Position numbers and translations under genes: made by a program | Assembly: GCA_963708675.1 (NCBI GenBank) | Contig: CAVPTO010000003.1 | Location: forward strand, 327,749 to 391,748 | Reading direction: 5' to 3' | DNA from: an uncultured Planctomycetota bacterium | GTDB lineage: Bacteria; Planctomycetota; Planctomycetia; Pirellulales; PNKZ01 | DNA: 64,000 bases | Notes under the pieces: model-generated | The model's input: only the letters and a program-made list of their open reading frames with translations | Told to the model about the DNA's origin: nothing | The model's database searches: none | In this document: piece by piece, positions 6,814 through 30,232 of the stretch | Numbering within the stretch: position 1 is the first letter of the stretch | Layout of the letters: the number at the start of each line of letters is the position of its first letter

Positions 6814-9784
6814 CTATTGTCTGTTCGCAGCGACGCTGACAAACACGGGGCGTCCCTCGACCAGCGCCTCACCATCGTCTGATGAAACTGTCGCGACACC
6901 GTCCTGAAGTTTGCCGATCGTTTTGAGTTGGGCAGTACCGGCGCCATCCGCACGCACGACCACTAACGGCCCAGCACTCGACGAAAGATTTCCCATGAGG
7001 ACGCACGTCCAACGCTCGTCACCTTGCACGGAGTCGTCGTGCTTCAGCCAGCCGATCCGTTCGTACAAAGGACCGATCGGCTCGTTCAATTCCGTCCACT
7101 GTGAACGAACGTCATTGTGAATCTCTTTTCCAGTCGGAAGGCGCTTCAGTAGATCTCTGGCTTTCGAACGCTCGGACCGCGCTTCGGCGTCTTCGGGATT
7201 AAGCCAATTCACGGTCAGCGTTAGATGCGCACGCATCATCAATTCTCGCGTTCGCGCAAACGCTTTCTGAAGCACCACGCTCGTCGCACTGCCAACATCG
7301 GTAAACCGGTCGAGCAGCGCTAGCCTCAGAATAGGGTCGAGCGAAGCGTCGTCTCGTACGCGCTCGGTCATCGTGCTCAAAGTTTCGTCCCAGCCCAGCG
7401 ACTTGAGCTTCGTATCAAGAACGTCGAGCAACTGTTTCGCAAGCTCCGACTGCGGTGCAGGCTCGTCGTAGGGGGATGTCGAATGAGACAACTCCTCAGG
7501 GCGCACGGACCTGGTCTTGAGCTTCATGTCGAAATCGCTGACATACTTGATGACGATTTTGCCTGTCGCCTGATCCAGCTTCGGATTCTCGCGCACAAAA
7601 TATTGTTTCGTCGCTTCCGGGTCGCGCACATCGACAACGCGCAGATCGGCGATGGTCGGCTCACGGAGCAAATCGAACAGCTGTTTAACGATCTGCGATT
7701 GCTTCGCTCCGCGCGCGGCAACCGACTCTAAGACCGGCATCTTCTCGCGAATCTTTGCGACTGCGGGGAGCGTGGTTGACGCAGGATCCTTGGCCACCTG
7801 TTGCGAATCATTCAACAACGTCTTCGCCTCGTCCGCGCTGAGAGCGTCGATCTTCGTTGCATTCCAGCGACGCACGAGAGCGTTTACCCGTTCGAGTTGC
7901 TTCCACAGCGGCGCCTCTTGCGATACGCGTTTGAAGTCAACGGCGCGGGCTGTCTGGCCAAAGCGGTCGGCGTAGGCGGCAAGTGCCGTCGTGAAGGAGT
8001 CCGGATTGCCGACGGCGGCCGTTACTTGACGCAGCATCCGATCTTGTTCGTGGCGCTGGGTGACGTTACGTGAGAGTGCCTCGGCTCGCGCCTTGAGCGG
8101 CGCGAGCGCGGCCGAGGAATGCGCACTCACAAGCCCCGATTGTGCCGACAAGTCGACGACGTCGCGCGTCAGCGCGAGCACCTGATCGTTGCTAGCCGTC
8201 GCATGCCTGGCGGCTTCTTCCAACTTTACGAGACGATCGGTGAGCGCTTGCACGCGCTCGTCGAATTGCTCATCAACGCGTCCCTGTTCCCTACGTTGTG
8301 CGGCGGCGATTCGGTTGTGCAGGTCGGAAACGCGTTCCTTTTCGTCAGCCGTTTTCGCCAGGCGTGTCGTTTCATCGCGTAGGTGACGATCCGCCTGGCT
8401 CAATCCGCTTAGTTGTGGCTTGTCAAAACGTGCGAGCTTCTCGGCGACATCGAGCGAAGCTTCGAACGACCGATGGCGTTTCGTCTCCTCATCGATCATC
8501 AACGCAAGTCGCGCGGCAACGGTCTCGACCGATGCACTGGCTGCGATCTCAGGTTCGGTGGCGCGAAGCTTGTCGAGAAAGTCGGAGGCCCCTGCCGTAT
8601 TGTCATCGTGCATCAGTCGCTCGATTGCCGCCACCTGACGCGCGACCTCGTTTCGCCACATGACTTCGCGGACGCCGATCGCCGTCAGCGCCTCCAGCCA
8701 CGAGGACGCCGACGGCGATGCCCACTACCATCAATCGTCGACGGCGCATGGCAGATAACGTCAGCGACGACATGCGATCGCGAACGCGCCGTTCGAGCAC
8801 CGGCGACAGCGGCATGTCGTAACGCAGACAGTCATGCACCAGACGTTCGAGAGCCAGCAGCGAGACGTCCGAATCGAGTGATTGCTCCAGTTTCGCCACG
8901 GCTGCCGAGAAAGCGACCTGCCGTTGTTCGCTGGCATCTTGCGAGTCGAGCCATGCAATCGTCGGCGAGACGGCCTCGACTAAGGGATCGTGATCGTCCA
9001 CGCCGGCGATCATCACGCACGCCTGCCATCGCCCCCGCAAGCTCCGTCCACGCTCGACGTCGAACTCCGAGTGCGCAGCGGTCAACTCGACCTCGAGACG
9101 CTTCAGCTCGGTGCGTGCGGCGTCTTGTCGTAGCCGTCCATGCGATTGACGTATCCGTTCGACGACCGACAGGACGGGCGGCTCAAGCCATCCCGGCGCG
9201 GTCACTTCGTCTTCGAGCGCTTCGACGGTCGTCACGTCCGAGTCGCGCACGGCGACCGCAAGCTCCTGTCCAATCGCCTGGACTCGGGTGCGTTCGTAAA
9301 TCCTCAGGTCTTCGGGCCATACCGGATTCGCCGGGTCGGCCTTGGCAATGCGTCGCAACGTGGCGATACGCTCCGACAGCGGCGCCCGAGCGAGCGCCAA
9401 TCGGCGATGCTGCTTCAGGAGGCTGTCGAGCGACAGGTTGGCGGCATATGCCTCGTTCAACTCGCTGGCGATGTCGATCAACAACTCCGGTGGTGGAAGC
9501 TCGCTATTCTCCTTGAGCAACGTCGCCCACTCGCGACGTTCGGGAAAGTCGAGCGTCGTGACGAGATCGAGCAGGTTGGGCTCGGTGTCGCAAAGCTGGA
9601 TCGCCTCGCTGCGTAGTCCTTGTCGCAACAACTTGGCGCATTGCCGCAACCGTGCATTGGCGTCGTTGCACAGTTGCATATAGTCGCCCGCCAGCGACGC
9701 CAACTCGTCCGGCATCGGTATGTGCTGCGAATGCAGCAGCGTCTTGATTTCGTCGATCAGCGCGTGTTCGTCGATTGCGGGCAT
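6814..9784 (-). CDS. large (~990 aa) helical/coiled-coil single-pass membrane protein; split by one frameshift near 8690
   Basis: ORFs 8603..9853 and 6814..8661 join in the middle of a TM helix (RRRRLMVVGIAVGVLVAGG/ALTAIGVREVMWRNE); ATG 9784 lies 7 bp after the upstream stop. Confidence 0.75.
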
Positions 9785-9791
9785 GACAATG

Positions 9792-12059
9792 CTACGGCCG
9801 GTCTTTTTGGATGTGACCAACCAGCCGGATGATTGGCTGCTGATCCTGTTCATCCAGCCATCGGTTCAATTCGGTAAGCTGGGCCTGCAACTTGGTTTCC
9901 TCAGCAATCCGCGACTGGACATTCGCTTCGGCGGAGCTCAGCGAATCCTTCTTGAGCTGACTCAAGGAGCTTTTCGATTGGTTGAGGGCACTCGTCACCG
10001 AAGCCTTCGTGAGCGGCTGGAATGCGCTGTTCGTTTTGTGCGGAAACAACAGGATTTTGACGTCGGGCTTGATCGTGAGTGCGGCAACTTTCGCCCCATC
10101 AGATTTCTCGGCAGCAGCGAAGACCAGCTCGATTTGAAATCCCTTTACCCAACCGCTGTGCGTTGTCCCGCGGGAGGCATCCAAAGCAAGGTCGTTGGAC
10201 GCCGATTCGACCGTCTGCACAACATGGTAGCCGAGCGGAAGATAACGCCAGCCCGGCTCAAACGCCTTGGAGCGTCGCTTCTGACAATCTTCGACACTGA
10301 ACGCGATGACCGATTCGTGGCGAGGAAAATCGAACGTCACCAGACAATCCTCTTCGCCCACGAAGACGCGCAGTACATGACCCAACAGACGAGCTTGATC
10401 CTCGGGCCTCTTAGCATCGAAGTTCAGCACCAGTGTATTGTCATTTTGCTGAAGGTGAGCGATCGTCAGCGGCGTGATGCCCATATTGGTTTTGATCACC
10501 CAGTCGCGGGCAACGTTCTCAAGGGTCAAAGAGCCGTGCGCAGACTCGGTATCTTCGATCTCGATTCGAACAGCGTCGCCACGGTTGTTCTTCCAACGCA
10601 CGAGCTCCATCGACTCCGACGTTCCGTCGAAACGCAACATGGCCTTGGCTGTGCGACCTTCGTGTAAGCCGACGAACGCGAACTGCTGGTAGGCGGGGTT
10701 CACATCGGCAGAGACTACCGGAGACGCTTGTGACATGTTCGGCGCACCGCCAATGGCAATCTGCGGCGAAGGTTCTTCGTTTGGCTTGAGCGGCGATTCA
10801 CTGACGTTGGACGCTGAAGCGACCTGTGAAGTTTCACGCGTTGGCGCTTCTTGAGTCGCTTGGGCGGGCTCAACTTCGGAGACTTCAGTCTTGCGTGTCG
10901 AGGTCGACGATTTGCCGTCGTGAACCGGAGCGGCCGAAATTTCACGATGCGACCGCGAACCGAGGACATAGGCGACAAACGCCAACGACGCCATCACCAG
11001 CACCACACACGCGATGGCGGAAGCATACAGAACGGCTTTGGGAACTCCTCGTCGTTCCCGATGCGGAACGAGTGGGGTGCGGGTCGAGGGATTCTCCGAG
11101 TTGCGATCGTCGTTGGCCGAGTCGCGAATCGTTGGCTGCAGCGCCGATACGCGGATGTCACCGGCACTTTCAACAGCCTCGGATGGTGGAGCATCTGCTG
11201 CGTCCTTCAGATCAGCAATCACCATCGTCGCCCGTGGGTGTCGAACGGGTTCCACCTGCGGCAGCTTCCCGGTCAGCGCTGCGGTCACCAGCGGTCTGTC
11301 GGGCGCTGGAGGCATTTGCTTACAAAGATCGAACACCAGCCAATGCGGCGAACGCCGCGCGGTCTCCGCCTCGGGCTGTCCGTCGACGACGAATCGCCAT
11401 TGACAATCGACACCCGGCGGAAGGCGCGTGAAGAATGTGCTGAACGTCACGTCCCAACGATGCTCCGGCGCGACCAATGCCAGCGCCTCGGCTACCAACG
11501 GCAACGCATTGAGGCCGAGTGGAATAATGACGTGTGTGGGTTTGGCATCGCGATCGCCGGCTGTCGCTGCAAGAACGCCTGCCCAGCCTGCGTCGCCCGT
11601 GGCTCGCTGCCATGCCGTGCAAATGCGTGGCGATTCGGTCAACGCAGGCGGCTTGCGACCAGACGGCAGAATGCGCGGCTCGCCCTGCCACGACGTCTCC
11701 ATGAAGTTCGGCTCGGCCAAGAGACGCGCCGGCCCGCAGGCGGAGCGTTCGGCCGCGGTCAACGCCACGTGGTGCGCGAGTTTGTTAGACCGCTGCGAGT
11801 AATCGATGCCGGCATCGCAAACCCGCGAGAGGACATCGAACGACTGCCCGCCGACGACGATCTTCAGGTGTGAGTAGTTGACCGGGTTTTGCGACGCGCG
11901 CTCGTCATGGGGCGGAAACAGATGGCGATAGCCGCTCAGCGATTCGAGGCGATCGGCGAGCGTGACGGCCATTCCCGCCGTGCTGGCGACCGTGCAGAAC
12001 CCCTTCACGCCGCTGCGGAGTCCGCGCGGAGCGGAAGTGTAAATCAGCTCCTGCGTCAC
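9792..12059 (-). CDS. GTPase-associated protein 1-like (GAP1-N2/GAP1-M) with TM and extracytoplasmic domain
   Basis: N-terminus 'QELIYTSAPRGL...GFCTVA...LESLSGY...GIDYSQRSNKLAHH' and 'RWDVTFSTF' match GAP1-N2/M as recalled; GTG start overlaps the GTPase stop; TM 'AVLYASAIACVVLVMASLAFVAYVLG'. Confidence 0.75.
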   Translation of the reverse strand: MTQELIYTSAPRGLRSGVKGFCTVASTAGMAVTLADRLESLSGYRHLFPPHDERASQNPVNYSHLKIVVGGQSFDVLSRVCDAGIDYSQRSNKLAHHVALTAAERSACGPARLLAEPNFMETSWQGEPRILPSGRKPPALTESPRICTAWQRATGDAGWAGVLAATAGDRDAKPTHVIIPLGLNALPLVAEALALVAPEHRWDVTFSTFFTRLPPGVDCQWRFVVDGQPEAETARRSPHWLVFDLCKQMPPAPDRPLVTAALTGKLPQVEPVRHPRATMVIADLKDAADAPPSEAVESAGDIRVSALQPTIRDSANDDRNSENPSTRTPLVPHRERRGVPKAVLYASAIACVVLVMASLAFVAYVLGSRSHREISAAPVHDGKSSTSTRKTEVSEVEPAQATQEAPTRETSQVASASNVSESPLKPNEEPSPQIAIGGAPNMSQASPVVSADVNPAYQQFAFVGLHEGRTAKAMLRFDGTSESMELVRWKNNRGDAVRIEIEDTESAHGSLTLENVARDWVIKTNMGITPLTIAHLQQNDNTLVLNFDAKRPEDQARLLGHVLRVFVGEEDCLVTFDFPRHESVIAFSVEDCQKRRSKAFEPGWRYLPLGYHVVQTVESASNDLALDASRGTTHSGWVKGFQIELVFAAAEKSDGAKVAALTIKPDVKILLFPHKTNSAFQPLTKASVTSALNQSKSSLSQLKKDSLSSAEANVQSRIAEETKLQAQLTELNRWLDEQDQQPIIRLVGHIQKDRP

Positions 12060-18712: not shown

Positions 18713-20027
18713 TCACTCGACCGGATTCGCCGCGGATTCGTTTGTGATGCTGTCCGGCTCGTCGCCAGTGCCGCCTTGTCGAGGGATTTTGGCGGGATCG
18801 AGGCTGAGGCGGCGCAGCTTCGGGGCGGCGACCGCTGCAACCGCCACAATCAACAGCGTCACGACGCCTCCCATCCACACCGACGGAACGGTCCCCAGCA
18901 GCTTGGCGGCCATACCGCTCTCGAGCGCCCCAAGCTCGTTCGACGAACCGATGAAGATCATGCTCACGGATGCAATGCGACCGCGAAGCGCCTCGGGCGA
19001 CATGAGCCGAATGATGCCGCGACGCACGACGACGCTCACGGCATCGAACACGCCGCTGAGGAACAACATGACGACCGAGAGCACGATCGATCGCGAGAAC
19101 GCGAAGACGATCATCGTCACGCCGAAGCCGGCCACGGCGATCAATAGACTTCGGCCCGCGTGTTCGACCGGCGGATGCTTCGTCGACCAAAGCATCATCA
19201 CGAGCGCCCCGGCCATCGGCGCAGCGGTCATTACGCCCAGTCCCCTGGGGCCGACGTGCAGGATGTCGCTCGCAAAGACCGGCAACAGCGCGATGGCTCC
19301 GCCAAACAACACGGCGAACAAGTCGAGCGCCATTGAAGCGAGCATGATCTGATCGCTAACGACGTAACGCACGCCAGCCGACACGCTCTGCCAAATCGTT
19401 TCGTCGTGAGGCGCGGCCAACGGCGATCGTGGCTTGAGAAAATGCACCGGCACCCATGCGGCAGCATAGAGCAGCCCGATGCCGACGAACGTCCATGCTG
19501 CGCCGAAGTACGAATAAACCACGCCACCGACCAGCGGGCCGATCGTGCCAGCCGTGAGAAAGACGCTAGCCATGACCGTCGAGCAGTTAATCAACAACTC
19601 CCACGGCACGACCTGAGCTTCGAGCGCCGACGCCGCCGGTTCGGCGAAACCTCGCGCGATGCCCGCCACAAAGACAACGGCATACAACAGGAAAAGCTCG
19701 GCCTCACCTGCGCCGACAGCTTCAAGTACGGCGAGCACCATCGCGCACACGGCCAGCGCAGCGAGCGTCACTCGCAGAATCGACCGTCGATCGACACGGT
19801 CGGCCACGTGACCGCCAAACAACGCGAGCGAAACCGAAGGAATCGCCTCGACCAGCCCCAACATGCCCAGCGACAGCGGATCGTGCATAAGTTCGTAAAC
19901 CTTGTAGCCGAGCACGACCGCGAGCGCACGGCTACGCGCCCGTCGCCAGCGCTGTCGCCGTGAGCAAATAACGGAAGTCGGCAAACGCGAAGGGGCCGGC
20001 CGTGGGCTGGGTTTCGGCAGTAGTCAA
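18713..20027 (-). CDS. MFS transporter (MFS_3/EntS-like); N-terminal frameshift near 19940
   Basis: GGHVADRVDRR motif A and ~12 TM; the N-terminus 'PFAFADFRYLLTATALAT' is in another frame starting at TTG 20027. Confidence 0.8.
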
Positions 20028-20080
20028 CGTGTCGCGATGCTTGGTAGTGGGTCAGTTTGAAATCGGACAACGTGATCGCG

Positions 20081-20329
20081 CTACTTGCGACTCAGCAAAA
20101 AGAAAAGAACCGCGCCAACCGCAGCCCAACATTTCATGGCGAGGTCACCGCCGCGATGGATGAATTCGACGAGCTTTTCGTCTGGCTCGTCCAAGATCCA
20201 GTGCTCAAAGAAGAAGTAAAGCGGCGGCAGGATAGCCCACGCCCCTCCAAGCCAAAGCGCTAAATCGTTTTTGGGGTCCGTCGCCGCTAACCATATCGAT
20301 ATCGCGGCGACAATGGTCGCCACTGGCAT
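20081..20329 (-). CDS. small 3-TM hypothetical membrane protein (IS passenger)
   Basis: Hydrophobic helices incl. 'WAILPPLYFFFEHW' and 'KCWAAVGAVLFFLL'; start could be further upstream (ORF to 20404). Confidence 0.55.
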   Translation of the reverse strand: MPVATIVAAISIWLAATDPKNDLALWLGGAWAILPPLYFFFEHWILDEPDEKLVEFIHRGGDLAMKCWAAVGAVLFFLLSRK

Positions 20330-20431
20330 GCAATACTGGCCAACCCTGATTACCTCGCGCCCATTCACTTGTTCCGTCCTCCGATGCGAATCGGTTGTTG
20401 CCAAAGCTGTTGCTCAGGTCATAATTAGACC

Positions 20432-20677
20432 ATGCCAAAGCGCTCACGCAACCGCTACGACTTTAATCAGCTCGCCCGCAAGATCGTCGACCAAGCTACG
20501 GGCGACAAGCCGGCAGAGCCGGCAAAGAAGCCGGCCAAAGAGAAAGACCCCGCAGCCGTCGCGCTTGGGCACAAGGGCGGACTCAAGGGCGGCAAGGCCC
20601 GGGCGGCGAAGATGACCGCAGAACAGCGCAAGGCAAGCGCGAAGAAGGCAGCACGGGCGCGGTGGGGCGAAGGCTAG
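20432..20677 (+). CDS. small basic 'histone H1-like'/KGG-motif protein (IS passenger)
   Basis: NQLARKIVDQATG...AAVALGHKGGLKGGKARA..MT.EQR...AKKAARARW; TTGCCA-N16-CATAAT-N6-ATG upstream. Confidence 0.8.
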   Translation: MPKRSRNRYDFNQLARKIVDQATGDKPAEPAKKPAKEKDPAAVALGHKGGLKGGKARAAKMTAEQRKASAKKAARARWGEG

Positions 20678-21237
20678 CGCGGCTTGCCCGGCCTGTGATC
20701 TTGCATCTGTGCCGCTTCGGGCGAAGTTGCGGCGATTCGCGCGACCTGCTGTTCGGCCGGTGCATCAACGATCATTGTAAAATCGAATTGCAGCTGGGAC
20801 TCGTTTCCGCATGCGTTCGGATTATTCACGTTGAAGTCCGTCTGTGAAGTGTTCAGCGACCGGCAATGGCCGGCGATTTGCTCCCACTCTTGGCGAAATG
20901 AAATATGAGCGTGGTTGGCGCTCATCTTCTTACGATCCGCCCAGAATGTTTTCTGAACCTTCTTTCCACCTATGACCACCTCCACGCGAGCGGCGTGGTA
21001 CTTCTTTACGACTTCCCCTTGCTCATTCCTTTCGCGCTGCGCCCCAGTGACTTTTGCAAGGTGCCTCGCCAGCTCCCGAATTAGGTTTCTTTTCTGCGGT
21101 CGCCAATCGCCGCTGTTGATCACCTCAAGGGCAATCTGCTCGTGGTCAATCGGATCGTTAGGATGCGCTTCGATCCATGTTTGGACCATGTCGTGCAGCG
21201 CGTCTGCATAACTCTTACTTAAGCTTCCCGTTGACAT
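20674..21237 (-). CDS. conserved hypothetical protein (IS passenger)
   Basis: 187-aa ORF with 'YHAAR...Q.TFW...QI.GHC..L.....DFN.NNP...QL.FDFT' pattern; AGAGG upstream of ATG. Confidence 0.65.
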   Translation of the reverse strand: MSTGSLSKSYADALHDMVQTWIEAHPNDPIDHEQIALEVINSGDWRPQKRNLIRELARHLAKVTGAQRERNEQGEVVKKYHAARVEVVIGGKKVQKTFWADRKKMSANHAHISFRQEWEQIAGHCRSLNTSQTDFNVNNPNACGNESQLQFDFTMIVDAPAEQQVARIAATSPEAAQMQDHRPGKPR

Positions 21238-21426
21238 GGCCTCTTAGCTCCATTTCAAGATCGACGACGCTGGTTTTCAATCCGCTGAGCAGCCTCAAAA
21301 GATAATCCGTTTTCGCCTCATCCCATTGCGGGCTTTCGACAACCGCAGCGATTCCGCCGAGTTCGGAGTCTATCGAAGTTAGCGCAACGCTTGCGGATTC
21401 AATCCATCCCACAACAGCGTTTGGTG

Positions 21427-22537
21427 TTATTGCTTCGCGCGTCTTTTCTCGTCTCCCGATTCCCATTCAAGTTTCACCTTTAAGTCGTTGCAGAACGACG
21501 GCTGAAGAATTCGCTCTCTTTGCAGCCGCCCAACCACTATACCGGGTGAAACTCCAACCTTTGCCGCAAATTCGCGGATAGCGATGCGCAACTTGAGATA
21601 CGCAAAGTCTCTGGTGAACTGTGTCGGAATCAGCAAGTCGCGGGCAAACGCGTTGGCGTCATCCTCGTACTCTCCCGACAATTGGCCATCGTCAATAAAC
21701 ATGTGCTTCTTGCCGTGAAGAAGGATATGACCAGCTTCATGAAACAGCGTGAACCAGAACTGGTCGTCAGACTTGTATCGCAAGCTAACCATGATGATCG
21801 GTTTGTCGTTGATCCATTTTGCAACACCACTCACGCTCGCGCCTTGGATTTCAGGAATCAGAAGAACGACTGCGCCAGCCTCCGAGCAAAGTCGCTTGAT
21901 GTCCGCTACGATTTCGTTAGCTGGCCTCGTCGCAATTTGAACGGTTAGCTTGCGAACCTCCATCAGCGCAGCCTTGAGCTTGCGCACGTCGTATGAAGGC
22001 ACTTCGATAGATTCCGCCTCGATTTCTCCCATGCGAATCCAGGCAGCGACGCGGCCCGGGTGCTTCTTCTGGACGCTCTCTCCACGAAACTGAACGCAGG
22101 GCTGAAGCCATGTTTCATTCCACGCGGAAACGTCGCTAACACCGAAGAACTTCAGGACGTTTCTCACGAGAATTCCCTTGTCGTCGCTCGTTTCAACAAA
22201 GCGGCGCTCAATCAATACCTTCACGGGAATCTGTTCGAGCCATTGAGCGTCCTGCTCTAGGCGCTCACTTGCCTCTATTCGCGCCAGTGCTTCGCGGTAA
22301 GAAAGTTCTCGCTTATTCCAAAAGCGCGCGGGTATGCCAAGCACCATTTCTAGCTTGTCGGCCGTCTCGTAAGAGATTGGTGCGATTCCATTGATGATTT
22401 GACTGATTGTCTTTTCGGCGAGCCCGGTACGCATCGCTAGGTCCGATTGGCTCAGGCCTTTCGCGTCCAGAGTCTCGCGCAGGTGTTGCGCCAGGTGGAA
22501 CTGCGTAGTCAGGCTCGAATTTGAATTGCTTCTTCAT
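21427..22537 (-). CDS. higA: HigA-type HTH antitoxin fused to an ImmA/IrrE (HExxH) metallopeptidase-like domain; frameshift near 22483
   Basis: 'PDYAVPPGAT/LRETL...SQSDLA.RTG...KTIS.II.G..PIS' HigA N-terminus; 'DDQFWFTLFHEAGHILLH' and 'E..AN.FA..LL'. Confidence 0.85.
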
Positions 22538-22552
22538 GTTTCACCATCCGCT

Positions 22553-22888
22553 TTAGTGGTAGTCGCCGATTGCAACAATCTCGACGCGCAACACCTTCGA
22601 CCAATCCAGGCCTCCGTCATCTTTGCGCGGCACCGGATCATCGGCCGGCTTAAAAGCCAGCCTGTCAGGATGGACCAAATCCACGGCCAGCAGACCCTTC
22701 AAGTTCTGCGTTAGTTCGTGGCACCTAGCCCCGACAACAAACCGCATATCTTCGAGAGTGTCGGCGTCATCCAGTTCGACGAGCCGTTGCTGAATAATGT
22801 TTGCCATCCTTTCCCCGTACTCGCCGCGCAGCTTTTTCGCTGAATTGCACAGCTTGGCTAGCTTCGAGTTCGTGAACGTTACATCCAT
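22553..22888 (-). CDS. higB: HigB/RelE-family toxin (killer-suppression type)
   Basis: MDVTF...L.KLCN...RL.EL..A.TL.D.......RCHEL..NLKG..AVDL.HP.RL.F.P...I..I.DYH; directly upstream of higA. Confidence 0.85.
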   Translation of the reverse strand: MDVTFTNSKLAKLCNSAKKLRGEYGERMANIIQQRLVELDDADTLEDMRFVVGARCHELTQNLKGLLAVDLVHPDRLAFKPADDPVPRKDDGGLDWSKVLRVEIVAIGDYH

Positions 22889-22904
22889 GATCGGCGTCTC
22901 ATTG

Positions 22905-22975
22905 TTCTTTACGTAAAAGGTAAACGATTTTTCATAGACAGTCCAGCGAATTTCTTTACCACTCAGGTAAAGAAA
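22905..22975. promoter_or_regulatory. two TTCTTTAC-N7-GTAAA operator-like palindromes (probable HigA operators)
   Basis: Copies at 22905-22924 and 22952-22971; the second is a perfect 10-bp-arm IR, TTTCTTTACC-N5-GGTAAAGAAA. Confidence 0.6.
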
Positions 22976-22978
22976 ATC

Positions 22979-23007
22979 TTGACATGACAACCTCGCTCAC
23001 GCATAAT
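22979..23007 (+). promoter_or_regulatory. sigma70 promoter for a leaderless transposase mRNA
   Basis: TTGACA(22979-84)-17 nt-CATAAT(23002-07)-6 nt-ATG(23014). Confidence 0.7.
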
Positions 23008-23013
23008 GCTCTT

Positions 23014-23892
23014 ATGAATACAGTTTCAAATGAGCGGAAGTTGCTGGTTCTCAAGTGCCTTGTCGAGGGTTGCTCGATCCGCAGTACGGTTCGACTGACG
23101 GGCGTCGCGAAGGGAACCATCCTCGGATTGCTGGCCGAGGCAGGCGAAGCGGCGCTCGAATACCAAGACGTGATGCTCAGGAACTTGCCGTGCAAGCGCA
23201 TCGAGTGCGACGAGATTTGGGCGTTCTGTTACAGCAAGCAAAAGAACGTTCCAGAGTCGATGCGCGGCACGCCGGGCGTGGGTGACATTTGGACATGGAC
23301 CGCGATGGAAGCTGAAACGAAGCTGATGGTTAGCTGGCGTCTCGGTGCCCGCGATGCAGCTAACGCACACGCCTTCATGTCGGACGTGTCTGACCGCCTT
23401 GCTAACCGCGTGCAAATGACGACCGACGGCAATCGCGTCTATCTGGATGCCGTCGATCATTACTTCGGTTCAAACATCGACTACGCGATGCTGATTAAGA
23501 AGTACGGAAAGGGCGATGAAAACCCAGACACGAAGTACAGCCCCGCGAAGTGCCTCGGGACGAAGAAGAAGGCAATCCAGGGCGAGCCCGTCATGGCACA
23601 CGTTTCGACGAGCTACGCCGAGCGCCAGAACTTGAATATCCGCATGAAGAATCGCCGCTTCACAAGGTTGACGAATGCTTTCTCCAAGAAGGCGGAGAAC
23701 CTCGCCTACTCGATCGCGATCGACTTCTTCCACCACAATTTCTGCCGTATCCATCAGACGCTTCGGATGACGCCAGCGATGAAGGCCGGCATTGCCAAGT
23801 ACCCGATGACGATGGAGGATTTAGTCGAGATGCTTCCGCTGCCGGTCGCGAAGAAGCGCGGGAAGTACAAGCCGCGAAAGCTACGGGCGTAA
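23014..23892 (+). CDS. IS1-family DDE transposase (single ORF, ISMhu11-like)
   Basis: N-terminal HTH (LVEG.SIRST.RLTGV.K.TI), 'CDEIW.F', 'WTW.A', 'TTDG...Y', 'TSY.ER.NL..R...RR.TRLTNAFSKK'; stop abuts the right TIR. Confidence 0.92.
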   Translation: MNTVSNERKLLVLKCLVEGCSIRSTVRLTGVAKGTILGLLAEAGEAALEYQDVMLRNLPCKRIECDEIWAFCYSKQKNVPESMRGTPGVGDIWTWTAMEAETKLMVSWRLGARDAANAHAFMSDVSDRLANRVQMTTDGNRVYLDAVDHYFGSNIDYAMLIKKYGKGDENPDTKYSPAKCLGTKKKAIQGEPVMAHVSTSYAERQNLNIRMKNRRFTRLTNAFSKKAENLAYSIAIDFFHHNFCRIHQTLRMTPAMKAGIAKYPMTMEDLVEMLPLPVAKKRGKYKPRKLRA

Positions 23893-24000
23893 TTCAACCT
23901 GACCCACTACCCGATGCTTTGGGCTCGTGAAGGGTTGGTCGCCATCTTGGCGAAACATCGAAAGAGCCGCAACCGCTCCGGTGGTGGAACGATCGCGAAG

Positions 24001-28989: not shown

Positions 28990-29212
28990 CGCGCTCGGCG
29001 CGCGTCTCCAACCCCGCCGTTGTGTCACGCGCTCGGCGCGGGTCTCTGACCCCGCCGCTCCGCCGACCGCAGGTCTCCGCTGCTCTCCGCCGCCCCACGT
29101 TATTGCGCACCCTATAGGAACGGGGTTTGTGCGCAATAATCCGGCGTCTTTCCAATGTTGACATGTCCGCTCCAACAGCACGCGCGCTCGGCGCGGGTCT
29201 TCGACCCCGTCG
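28990..29212 (+). repeat. three direct copies of a ~30-bp REP-like unit CGCGCTCGGCGCGGGTCTC.GACCCCGCCG
   Basis: Copies at 28990-29019, 29028-29057 and 29183-29212; internal GGGTC/GACCC hairpin. Confidence 0.75.
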
Positions 29213-29327
29213 CACGGCACCCAGTCGCACACTCGTTATGCGATTTGTCTTGGAGACGCCGTCCACGATAAAATCCGGTCATATACATGGTCGAACTTGC
29301 ATCACTCGTTTTTTGAGGGCTAGGAAC

Positions 29328-29861
29328 ATGAAACGATTCGCGCTCGCATTGACCGCCTTTGCCCTGCTCGTGCTGCCGGTGCTTGGCGAGGACGCCCACA
29401 AGCATTCGCCAACCGCGACGTCCAACGCAGGACTCGACAAAATGAAAACGCTTGTCGGCACATGGATGGTGGCCGACAAAGATGGCAAGCCCACGGACCA
29501 AGTCGCTTCGGTCATCACACTCACGGCCGGGGGCAGCGCGATTCACGAGGTTCTTTTCCCAGGCCAGCCGCACGAGATGGTTTCGATGTACACGGCCGAC
29601 GGCCCGGACCTGGTGATGACGCACTATTGCGTGCTCGGCAATCAGCCCCGCATGCGAGCTCACGGCGTCGAGAACGGCAATCAGTTGCGTTTCGAGTTCG
29701 ACGGCGGCACGAATCTCGACCCGGCGAAGGACAAGCACATGCACGCCTCGACGCTGAAGATCGTTGACGCAGACCATTTGGAGATCGATGGCACGGGCTG
29801 GGAAAATGGCGGCCCGGAAAAAGACATGTGCCACGGCATCAAACTCGTCCGGAAGAAATAA
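29328..29861 (+). CDS. secreted beta-barrel (lipocalin-like) hypothetical protein
   Basis: Signal peptide MKRFALALTAFALLVLPVLG; 'LVGTW', 'EMVSMY', 'THYC..GNQPRM', 'HMH' motifs. Confidence 0.8.
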   Translation: MKRFALALTAFALLVLPVLGEDAHKHSPTATSNAGLDKMKTLVGTWMVADKDGKPTDQVASVITLTAGGSAIHEVLFPGQPHEMVSMYTADGPDLVMTHYCVLGNQPRMRAHGVENGNQLRFEFDGGTNLDPAKDKHMHASTLKIVDADHLEIDGTGWENGGPEKDMCHGIKLVRKK

Positions 29862-29862
29862 G

Positions 29863-30032
29863 TGATCGTTTATTGATCTTCAGGTTGCTAATCGAACGAC
29901 GACTCCTTTTGCTCCCTCTCCCCTTGCGGGAGAGGGCCGGGGTGAGGGGTAGTGAAGCGTGTACTCGCCTCAACCCCTCACCCGGTTCGCCTGCGGCGAA
30001 CCACCCTCTCCCGCAAGGGGAGAGGGTATAAG
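29863..30032. repeat. ~170-bp palindromic intergenic repeat (CCCTCTCCC...GGGAGAGGG type), copy 1
   Basis: Reverse-complement homologue at 35087-35261; contains CCCTCTCCCCTTGCGGGAGAGGG hairpins. Confidence 0.85.
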
Positions 30033-30232
30033 ACATTCCACTGTCGGTTCGATTGACAACCTGAACACCAATAGCCAGCTCGCCTGCAAGCCGTGCCCGG
30101 CCGCTACGCGGCGGGCAAGGCCCGCCGGCTAAACAGAGCGCTCAAATGAAAAAGTGAAGATCAATCAACGCGTCGGCCATTTCGCGCGGCGCAGGTTGCG
30201 GACGGATCGATGCGTCCTCTATGCTGCACTCA

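Follow-up and report, generated by a model that had tools for sequence, protein, structure and literature searches.

An intact, cargo-carrying IS1-type element with a PD-lambda-2-like operon in an uncultured Planctomycetota bacterium

The 64-kb stretch of DNA from an uncultured Planctomycetota bacterium analysed here (the window; all coordinates are window positions) contains an intact insertion sequence (IS) element of the IS1 type, 3,869 bp in length (20043-23911), with cargo genes held between its ends. The interpretation preferred here, to which we assign a probability of about 0.8, is that this is a single-copy transporter IS (tIS) with a backbone of two genes, encoding a small basic protein and a transposase, and with a PD-lambda-2-like cargo operon whose second gene (B) is broken, the insertion having hit the 5' end of a host gene for a major facilitator superfamily (MFS) transporter. 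The terminal inverted repeats of 19 bp match at 18 of 19 bases, the element is flanked by a target-site duplication, and the stop codon of the transposase gene (TAA, 23890-23892) lies directly before the right end. A sequence-only reading of the window had already reported these features, and all of them were found again in the sequence, confirming an intact 3.9-kb element of the IS1 type. With up to three mismatches allowed, the end motif matches the whole window only twice, at the left and right inverted repeats (IRL and IRR), with 0 matches expected from 100 shuffles. The element is also AT-richer than its surroundings, as had been stated of its cargo, with a GC content of 54.6% compared with ~60–65% in the flanks, and every cargo open reading frame (ORF) named in the sequence-only reading exists. 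Searches at both the DNA and the protein level find the element as a single copy in its own genome of 6.7 Mb and 5 contigs, and it contains no tRNA (ARAGORN) and no Rfam match at E<=1.

The analysis supports the description of the element as an IS that transports cargo, with ends of the IS1 type, a duplication of 8 bp and a DDE transposase resembling that of IS1, and the alternative that chance inverted repeats flank a genomic islet was rejected on the evidence of a family of related elements. A DNA search of 40 relatives found the closest of these, a 3,551-bp element (L005, in genome G012) with the same gene set and ~70% nucleotide identity, ending in GGTAGTGGGCCAATTTGAA and without a flanking duplication. 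Five further elements of 2,332–4,261 bp from other genera of the same order have family ends and perfect 8-bp duplications of unrelated sequence (AGCACTTC, AGGAATTG, CAACCGCG, GAATGAGC and AAAAGTTC), with the 8-bp duplication present in 5 of the 6 related elements from this order. Elements with the same ends are present in relatives, but no second copy was found in the genome itself. A wider search with the transposase gave 80 loci from many phyla, covering Planctomycetota, Rhodobacterales and other Alphaproteobacteria, Chloroflexota, Actinomycetota, Acidobacteriota, Bacteroidota and others. A candidate inverted repeat is present in 73 of these loci, with family-type termini on both arms in 54 as judged by a script and filter; one locus (L092) with GGTCGTG on one arm and a duplication was nevertheless removed by the end filter. 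The flanking repeats of the 54 elements measure 8 bp in 40 cases, 6 bp in 5 and 9 bp in 1, with none in the remaining 8.

Together with the first seven (the window copy and six relatives), the filtered elements form a set of 61 ranging from 1,984 to 6,079 bp (median 3,179 bp), whose 122 ends are invariant at positions 1-2 and 6-7 and whose consensus end is that of the IRL in the window (Table 1). No bare transposase-only IS is found among the 61, and none is shorter than ~2 kb. Cargo lies mainly between the small-protein gene and the transposase gene and in some cases beyond them, though still inside the ends, with more than 200 nt beyond the transposase stop in 30 of the 61 elements. The element of 6,079 bp (L043, on a contig of a Roseovarius metagenome-assembled genome) holds three other transposase genes in its middle (IS1595-type, DDE_3 and DDE_Tnp_1), and is to be explained either as a landing pad for other ISs or by ends that were mis-paired.

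Table 1. Features of the element and of the host gene that it hit, in window positions (HMM, hidden Markov model; HTH, helix-turn-helix; TA, toxin-antitoxin; L005, the closest related element).
Feature	Position	Strand	Remarks
Host MFS_3 transporter gene, 5' end hit by element	18713..20034	-	Pfam MFS_3; frame analysis
Left target-site duplication copy, CGATGCTT	20035..20042		Identical to 23912-23919
IRL, GGTAGTGGGTCAGTTTGAA	20043..20061	+	Same as consensus end from 61 elements
107-aa ORF with hydrophobic stretches	20081..20404	-	Between IRL and small basic protein gene
Sigma-70-like promoter match, TTGCCA-16-CATAAT	20398..20425	+	Just 5' of small basic protein gene; consensus match only
81-aa small basic protein gene	20432..20677	+	Family HMM; no Pfam family
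hyp187, 187 aa, fourth operon gene	20674..21237	-	Predicted: three helices, beta hairpin, long helix
hyp83, 83 aa, third operon gene	21215..21466	-	Overlaps both neighbours; conserved only in L005, 66% aa identity
Gene B, Xre-HTH fused to M78 (ImmA/IrrE-type) metallopeptidase, HEAGH motif	21427..22537	-	Pfam Peptidase_M78 2.9e-14, HTH_3 4.4e-7
Gene A, 111-aa HigB-like (RelE/ParE-type)	22553..22888	-	PHROG 3066 'toxin of TA system' 3.4e-9
Two operator-like palindromes, 47 bp apart	22907..22972		CTTTAC-N7-GTAAAC 22907-22925; CTTTAC-N7-GTAAAG 22954-22972
Sigma-70-like promoter match, TTGACA-17-CATAAT, 11/12	22979..23007	+	Transposase gene; kept in L005; consensus match only
Single-ORF IS1-type DDE transposase	23014..23892	+	292 aa from ATG 23014; ORF open from 22984
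IRR	23893..23911	-	Reverse complement GGTAGTGGGTCAGGTTGAA
Right target-site duplication copy, CGATGCTT	23912..23919		Perfect 8-bp repeat

The transposase has at least 8,000 homologues in the database searched (best identity 82% among the matches listed), with the named homologues, several of them from Pirellulales, called 'IS1 family transposase', a generic RefSeq name only. In an alignment of 60 homologues drawn from the family elements, residues D76, D148 and E213 (ORF numbering) are invariant and are the candidate catalytic residues. The stretch ERxN...R..RxTRLTN.FSKK is likewise invariant across the 60, with its ERxNxxxR...FSKK region lying within the matches to the IS1 profiles. No Cys is conserved at >=95% in this alignment, and hence no conserved zinc finger is evident. 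Residue M11 is kept in 98% of the homologues, which together with the promoter match at 22979-23007 suggests that the true start is probably ATG 23014. A protein of 216 residues from another assembly (P0009) matches the window transposase exactly up to residue 212 and differs from there on, and may represent a near-identical copy elsewhere that is truncated or frameshifted.

The second backbone gene encodes the small basic protein, which the sequence-only reading had called histone-H1-like and counted as cargo. Its distribution is instead that of a near-constant backbone gene, with an HMM built from the seven first-found copies matching in 53 of the 54 elements outside its seed set, and with 56 matches in the 178,180 bp that lie within elements compared with 2 in the 489,454 bp outside them at the same loci. 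Of 60 matches with the seeds included, 58 are on the transposase strand and 39 have an ORF start no more than 100 nt from the outer end of the IRL; in L005 the gene begins 77 nt from the IRL. Furthermore, the small gene lies upstream of the transposase in 11 of the 26 loci without a recognised end pair. The protein, of ~80 residues, carries the N-terminal motif ...RD.NQLAK.IVD.ATG and the C-terminal motif KDPAAVALGR.GGLKGGKARA..L.PE.RSEIARKAA.ARW., the latter also found at the start of the P63C-domain proteins of some elements, and is predicted by AlphaFold2 to form three helices (predicted local distance difference test score, pLDDT, 79.6). No Pfam family matches it, the best PDB-sequence profile and Foldseek matches have E values of 0.69 and 7.6 respectively, and the clusters that hold it in the protein atlas are all unnamed. 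A profile search nonetheless gives 15,370 cluster representatives at E<=0.001 and 4,315 at E<=1e-10, mostly of ~80 residues.

The cargo of the window copy consists of four minus-strand genes, A, B, hyp83 and hyp187, arranged in one tight operon divergent from the transposase gene. The product of gene A scores 15.4 bits against Pfam HigB-like_toxin (cut-off 27), with 7 of 9 aligned homologues matching this family at E<=0.1 and two of them (L024, 27.4 bits, and L029, 33.7 bits) passing the cut-off. Gene B matches the PADLOC model PD-Lambda-2_B at 3e-27, and its intact L005 homologue at 1.8e-35, with the HExxH motif invariant across 13 B homologues. Of the two genes that follow, hyp83 matches no family in Pfam or PADLOC, whilst hyp187 has homologues 3' of an Xre-peptidase gene at 10 other loci; fold searches with the hyp187 model gave a best Foldseek E of 0.43 and, in a wide VIA-align search, a best Z of 4.6 that covers the long helix only. 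In the available text of Vassallo et al. (PMC9519451), the anti-phage system PD-lambda-2 of E. coli, which acts by abortive infection, comprises three genes, the first HigB-like and the second an Xre-peptidase fusion, with B toxic alone, A rescuing from this toxicity and C required for defence. The HigB-like and Xre-HTH/M78 genes that had been read as a higB/higA-ImmA TA pair are present, but as the first half of a four-gene operon, and the 'TA system' is better described as a PD-lambda-2-like operon. The operon is also a mosaic, in which A shares 73% identity with copies from two other genera (L020 and L021), at loci that lack a transposase, compared with 62% to that of the sister element L005, and the Xre-peptidase shows the opposite pattern (80% to the sister element compared with 53%).

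Were the cargo an ordinary type II HigB-HigA addiction module, A would be the toxin and B the antitoxin, and the pair would stabilise the element or its replicon. The toxin-first gene order is that of higBA, the matches of A and its homologues to toxin families are as expected of such a module, and B has a weak match to TIGR02607 antidote_HigA (24.6 bits, cut-off 47.7); binding between A and B is also predicted by modelling, and TA passengers beside Tn3-family transposition genes are described in the available text of PMC7157771. However, B possesses a full M78 peptidase domain with its invariant HExxH, and is followed by two more conserved genes. Many family members, with examples at L018, L016, L030 and L065, carry B and a hyp187-like gene without a HigB-like gene, and in the only tested relative of this architecture, as the available text of PMC9519451 describes it, B is toxic and A rescues. 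Additionally, a toxin A without the A-binding N-terminus of B should be lethal, yet this N-terminus is lost here if the frameshift in B is real. An ordinary HigB-HigA module is accordingly considered quite improbable, and the operon is treated below as PD-lambda-2-like.

The predicted contact between A and B was examined with the intact pair from L005 (G012), for which the complex model scores 0.85, with 0.26 the best of three controls, using our own alignments as input. The mark applied to this score is reached by 116 of 157 solved complexes and by 2 of 215 mismatched pairs. The runs agree in >=98% of contacts, with a partner pLDDT of >=90, and place the interface at B residues 4-26 and 68-80. 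The model supports, but does not show, that A binds the N-terminus of B, through which the two would act as a TA-like pair. Relative to the intact 370-aa L005 homologue, B in the window has one extra base at ~22480-22484, leaving a 5' piece with 18 native codons from ATG 22537 and a main ORF of 335 aa from ATG 22434 (22434-21427). The frameshift cuts off the first interface stretch (residues 4-26), and this 1-nt insertion, if real, would probably render the cargo module defective in this copy. The suggestion that the element is self-stabilising is consequently doubtful for this copy, its Xre-peptidase gene being frameshifted.

This frameshift, together with a second one in the host MFS gene described below, may alternatively stem from assembly errors, with the cargo and the MFS gene intact in the organism. 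An assembly of 5 contigs suggests the use of long reads, and the near-identical transposase in another assembly is itself truncated, so that indel differences between assemblies do occur. Against this, the window contains 46 ORFs of >=300 aa, including ORFs of 1,152, 805 and 802 aa, which indicates that indel errors are infrequent, and neither frameshift site is a long homopolymer. Assembly error at both sites is therefore a conceivable though doubtful explanation, and we lean, at odds of about two to one, towards the frameshifts in B and in the MFS gene being real.

The divergent region between gene A and the transposase gene spans 125 bp, with the second of its two palindromes ending 6 nt ahead of the -35 element of the transposase promoter match. 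With its counterpart in L005 this stretch shares 85% identity, compared with ~70% for the whole element, and the half-sites and spacing of the palindromes are kept in L005 whilst their spacers differ. The perfect palindrome motif occurs once in the window, with 0.01 occurrences expected, and among the fetched loci is found only in L005 and the window's own copies. Judged from their sequence and position, the palindromes may be operators for the HTH domain of B, and could couple expression of the cargo with that of the transposase.

Alternatively, B may serve mainly as a stress- or phage-sensing switch and not as a defence effector, its HTH repressor joined to a self-acting M78 protease whose cleavage derepresses both the operon and the transposase gene. 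Systems to which such a switch may be likened are ImmR/ImmA, IrrE/DdrO and CapH/CapP, and the PADLOC matches of B also include CapP (5.3e-10) and, for the L005 homologue, CapH. The position of the operator-like palindromes, which abut the transposase -35 and are kept in L005, would suit a switch of this kind, as would the A/B operon adjoining the 5' end of the transposase gene in 13 of 13 tabulated B-type elements. However, this adjacency is to some extent trivial, since cargo is placed mainly in the space between the two backbone genes. B is absent from many family members, and its best PADLOC match is a defence component, PD-Lambda-2_B. The switch is hence regarded as possible, if somewhat doubtful, and the preferred interpretation retains only the putative coupling through the palindromes.

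A comparison of cargo between copies showed the G012 element to carry the same cargo as the window copy, but other relatives to carry different cargo in the same arrangement. In a Pfam scan of 142 ORFs of >=100 aa from the other family elements, both Xre-HTH and M78 domains are found in the cargo of 7 elements and the HTH alone in 4 homologous long proteins, with HigB-like_toxin over its cut-off in 2. Also present are nSTAND1/AAA_16 ATPases (7), P63C (6), DUF5343 (4), NYN (3), SocA_Panacea (3, one with PemK) and SDH-type ClpP-like proteases (2). A HipA-like kinase with DUF3037, a dCTP-deaminase-like protein, an N6/N4 methylase with an Mrr domain, an AAA_21 protein, and an AAA protein with a subtilase occur once each, and many cargo ORFs match no family. 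By domain content, the cargo of the family is mostly TA-like or defence-like. On a plasmid of a cultured strain of Acidiphilium multivorum (L117; NZ_CP041717.1, 5016-6736), genes for a RES-domain toxin and an MbcA/ParS/Xre antitoxin directly follow a homologue named 'IS1 family transposase' in RefSeq. The window copy additionally contains the 107-aa ORF listed in Table 1, which is part of an extra left-end segment of ~330 bp absent from L005, and which has no Pfam, NCBIfam, PHROG or PADLOC match and no tblastn match in any fetched locus.

With respect to the insertion site, an ATG at 23958 in the right flank (minus strand), in the frame of the orthologues, reads via the duplicated octamer into the N-terminus of the MFS transporter. 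This likely original start lies beyond the element, and the insertion has therefore probably split or decapitated the MFS gene; an alternative start at TTG 20027 would place the insertion 15 nt 5' of the start codon. The element lies 81 bp 3' of the stop (24001) of an EmrB-like gene on the same strand as the MFS_3 gene, and the MFS gene, at 42 nt 3' of the EmrB-like gene, may have formed an operon with it. The MFS gene itself has a +1 frameshift at ~19934, through which orthologues from 5 relatives read without interruption.

The surroundings of the element were compared with contigs from four low-depth moss-metagenome runs, of which X1 and X2 look like the same data. These contigs partly cover the flanks, without differences, and a contig in X1/X2 lacks the extra base of the MFS gene at ~19934; none of the contigs from the four runs spans the insertion point or covers the interior of the element. 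Contigs from X1/X2 and X4 join both ends of the element (window 20035 and 23917) to DNA unlike the window, their matches including 8 and 6 nt of the duplicated octamer, which hints that a close copy (>=90% alike) exists elsewhere, next to a similar octamer. The relatives and metagenomes searched yielded no empty site. In the two genomes of the same genus the flanking genes lie on different contigs, at ~70% identity, so that no orthologous empty site can be read from them. One exact match to the joined 20-nt empty site among the metagenome contigs (L116) was dismissed as chance, since its flanks have no similarity to the window by blastn and a match of this length is to be expected in so large a collection. 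Elsewhere in the window, short stretches at ~28990-30140 match dozens of places in a genome of the same genus at 75–100% identity, in the manner of repetitive extragenic palindromic sequences or miniature inverted-repeat transposable elements.

The insertion had been proposed to be recent, a claim for which the perfect duplication and the intact ends are the only evidence and which is unproven, with no empty site found and the adjacent host gene itself frameshifted. At the other extreme, the element may be a dead relic, an old and immobile insertion with decaying cargo. Its single copy in the genome, the frameshifts that interrupt both B and the neighbouring MFS gene, and the failure to find an empty site in relatives or metagenomes are all in keeping with a relic. 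In opposition to this, the transposase is full length and retains every residue conserved at >=95% in the 60 homologues, the ends fit the family consensus and the duplication is perfect. Moreover, the X1/X2 and X4 contigs hint at a copy elsewhere, and P0009 provides a transposase identical over 212 residues in another assembly. A dead relic is on these grounds judged unlikely, and an intact tIS with a broken B gene is preferred.

In the mechanism proposed for this tIS, the N-terminal helix-turn-helix region of the transposase presumably binds the 19-bp ends, and insertion yields the 8-bp duplication. The backbone consists of the small basic protein gene, usually inside the left end, and the transposase gene near the right end, whilst binding of B's HTH to the two palindromes would couple expression of the cargo and the transposase. 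The analysis establishes the anatomy of the element, its family, its backbone gene and the homologies, whilst the role of the small protein, the binding of the operators, the neutralisation between A and B, and any defence function are inferred.

Several observations weigh against the interpretation of the element as an IS1-type tIS with a two-gene backbone and a PD-lambda-2-like operon. The transposase falls below the cut-offs of both IS1 models, with 54.6 bits (E 1.3e-14) against a cut-off of 100 for NCBIfam transpos_IS1 (NF033558), and 20.4 bits against 24.1 for Pfam DDE_Tnp_IS1 (PF03400). The small-protein HMM misses one of the 54 elements (L083), L092 also has no match, and 15 of the 26 loci that lack a recognised end pair give no match for the gene either. 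Furthermore, a locus in the same genome (L104; G000:C3:5464000-5482000, ~9160-10942) has the small gene, a hyp187-like gene and an Xre-peptidase gene in a matching arrangement, with neither family ends nor a transposase within 18 kb, adjoining a gene for a SWIM-zinc-finger protein and integrase-like ORFs. This locus could be a fossil element or an independent module, and suggests that the small protein could belong to a cargo-type module rather than to the transposition machinery.

Of the cargo proteins, neither hyp187 with its 10 homologues (0 of 11) nor the A homologues (0 of 9) match at E<=1 any PADLOC model, this search covering the PD-Lambda-2 models for hyp187 and all models for A, and the operon is consequently like PD-lambda-2 in its A-B core and not a demonstrated member of that system. 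The high score of the A-B model may reflect resemblance to solved HigB-HigA structures. No read covered the frameshift site in B, so that both frameshifts could be the assembly errors considered above. Finally, neither a second copy in the genome, an empty site nor a circle junction was found, and present-day mobility is thus not shown.

A bolder interpretation holds that the family is a new, cross-phylum IS1-like branch acting as a dedicated shuttle for TA and anti-phage genes, in which the small protein is an obligatory end-binding cofactor or regulator of transposition and B a sensor, connected to the transposase promoter through shared operators, that drives both defence and movement. We consider this proposal unlikely as a whole, though it would have consequences if true, as phage attack or DNA damage would then induce the defence operon and transposition together. 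In the more conservative interpretation preferred here, two features appear to be new within the literature searched, namely the small-protein gene, which is near-constant, and a cargo that in this branch is predominantly TA-like or defence-like.

Insertion sequences are commonly regarded as consisting of a transposase alone, and this lineage, at least ~2 kb long in the sample, keeps one small protein gene. Its exchangeable middle is rich in Xre-M78, HigB-like, PemK, SocA/Panacea, HipA-like, STAND-type ATPase, NYN, P63C, dCTP-deaminase-like and methylase/Mrr proteins. If this holds, the lineage would provide a very small and simple vehicle by which immune and addiction genes spread, would give a large family of orphan small proteins a role, and would offer a tractable system in which to ask whether cargo regulators govern transposition. 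For annotation of the present genome, the MFS transporter gene should be recorded as hit at its 5' end and the cargo operon as probably defective.

Members of the IS1 family have ends that begin GGnnnTG and generate target duplications of 8–9 bp, features shared by the present element with GGTAGTG at both ends and an 8-bp duplication; its DDE transposase matches the IS1 profiles below their curated cut-offs. Classical IS1 produces its transposase through a -1 frameshift between insA and insB', and InsA carries a zinc finger. In contrast, the transposase of the present element is encoded by one uninterrupted ORF, with no insA/insB' frameshift and no conserved zinc finger evident, and the near-constant second gene, whose small basic product belongs to no named family, is also unlike the IS1 family. 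InsA of IS1 is itself a small basic protein, encoded just inside the IRL, that binds the ends and represses transposition. The small protein described here is likewise encoded just inside the IRL and on the transposase strand, and is basic with ~80 residues, a likeness that is positional only. It differs from InsA in having no sequence similarity, no detected zinc finger or HTH and no frameshift fusion, with cargo separating its gene from that of the transposase. By this positional analogy, our best guess is that the small protein may be an InsA-like regulator that binds the ends.

Literature searches on tIS, defence and IS1 passengers returned no description of this small-protein IS1-like family, and the term 'ISMhu11', under which the sequence-only reading had grouped comparable elements, had no match in the searchable literature. 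The tIS is an already known kind of element, with passenger genes described for the class in the available text of PMC9330008 and PMC7986276. The element is a tIS in that it holds at least four cargo genes and one transposase gene within one pair of IS ends, with different cargo in its relatives.

The cargo operon is like PD-lambda-2, as set out in the available text of Vassallo et al. (2022, PMC9519451), in its HigB-like gene followed by an Xre-HTH/C-terminal peptidase gene with further genes 3' of it. It is unlike PD-lambda-2 in that gene A and the downstream genes match no PD-Lambda-2 model, in having two downstream genes where that text gives one 'P4 antitoxin-like' gene, in lying inside an IS, and in its frameshifted B. 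For component C, neither hyp187 nor hyp83 matches a model, a distinction drawn by the models and not by the sequence of C itself.

TA pairs are passengers beside the transposition genes of Tn3-family transposons, according to the available text of Lima-Mendez et al. (2020, PMC7157771). In comparison with those transposons, the present element has a different and much smaller transposase, no resolvase or res site, and an 'antitoxin' with a peptidase domain. It is nevertheless like the Tn3-family TA transposons, as far as that text describes them, in placing a TA-like operon beside, and divergent from, the promoter of its transposition gene, an arrangement that suggests coupling between cargo and transposition rather than free-riding.

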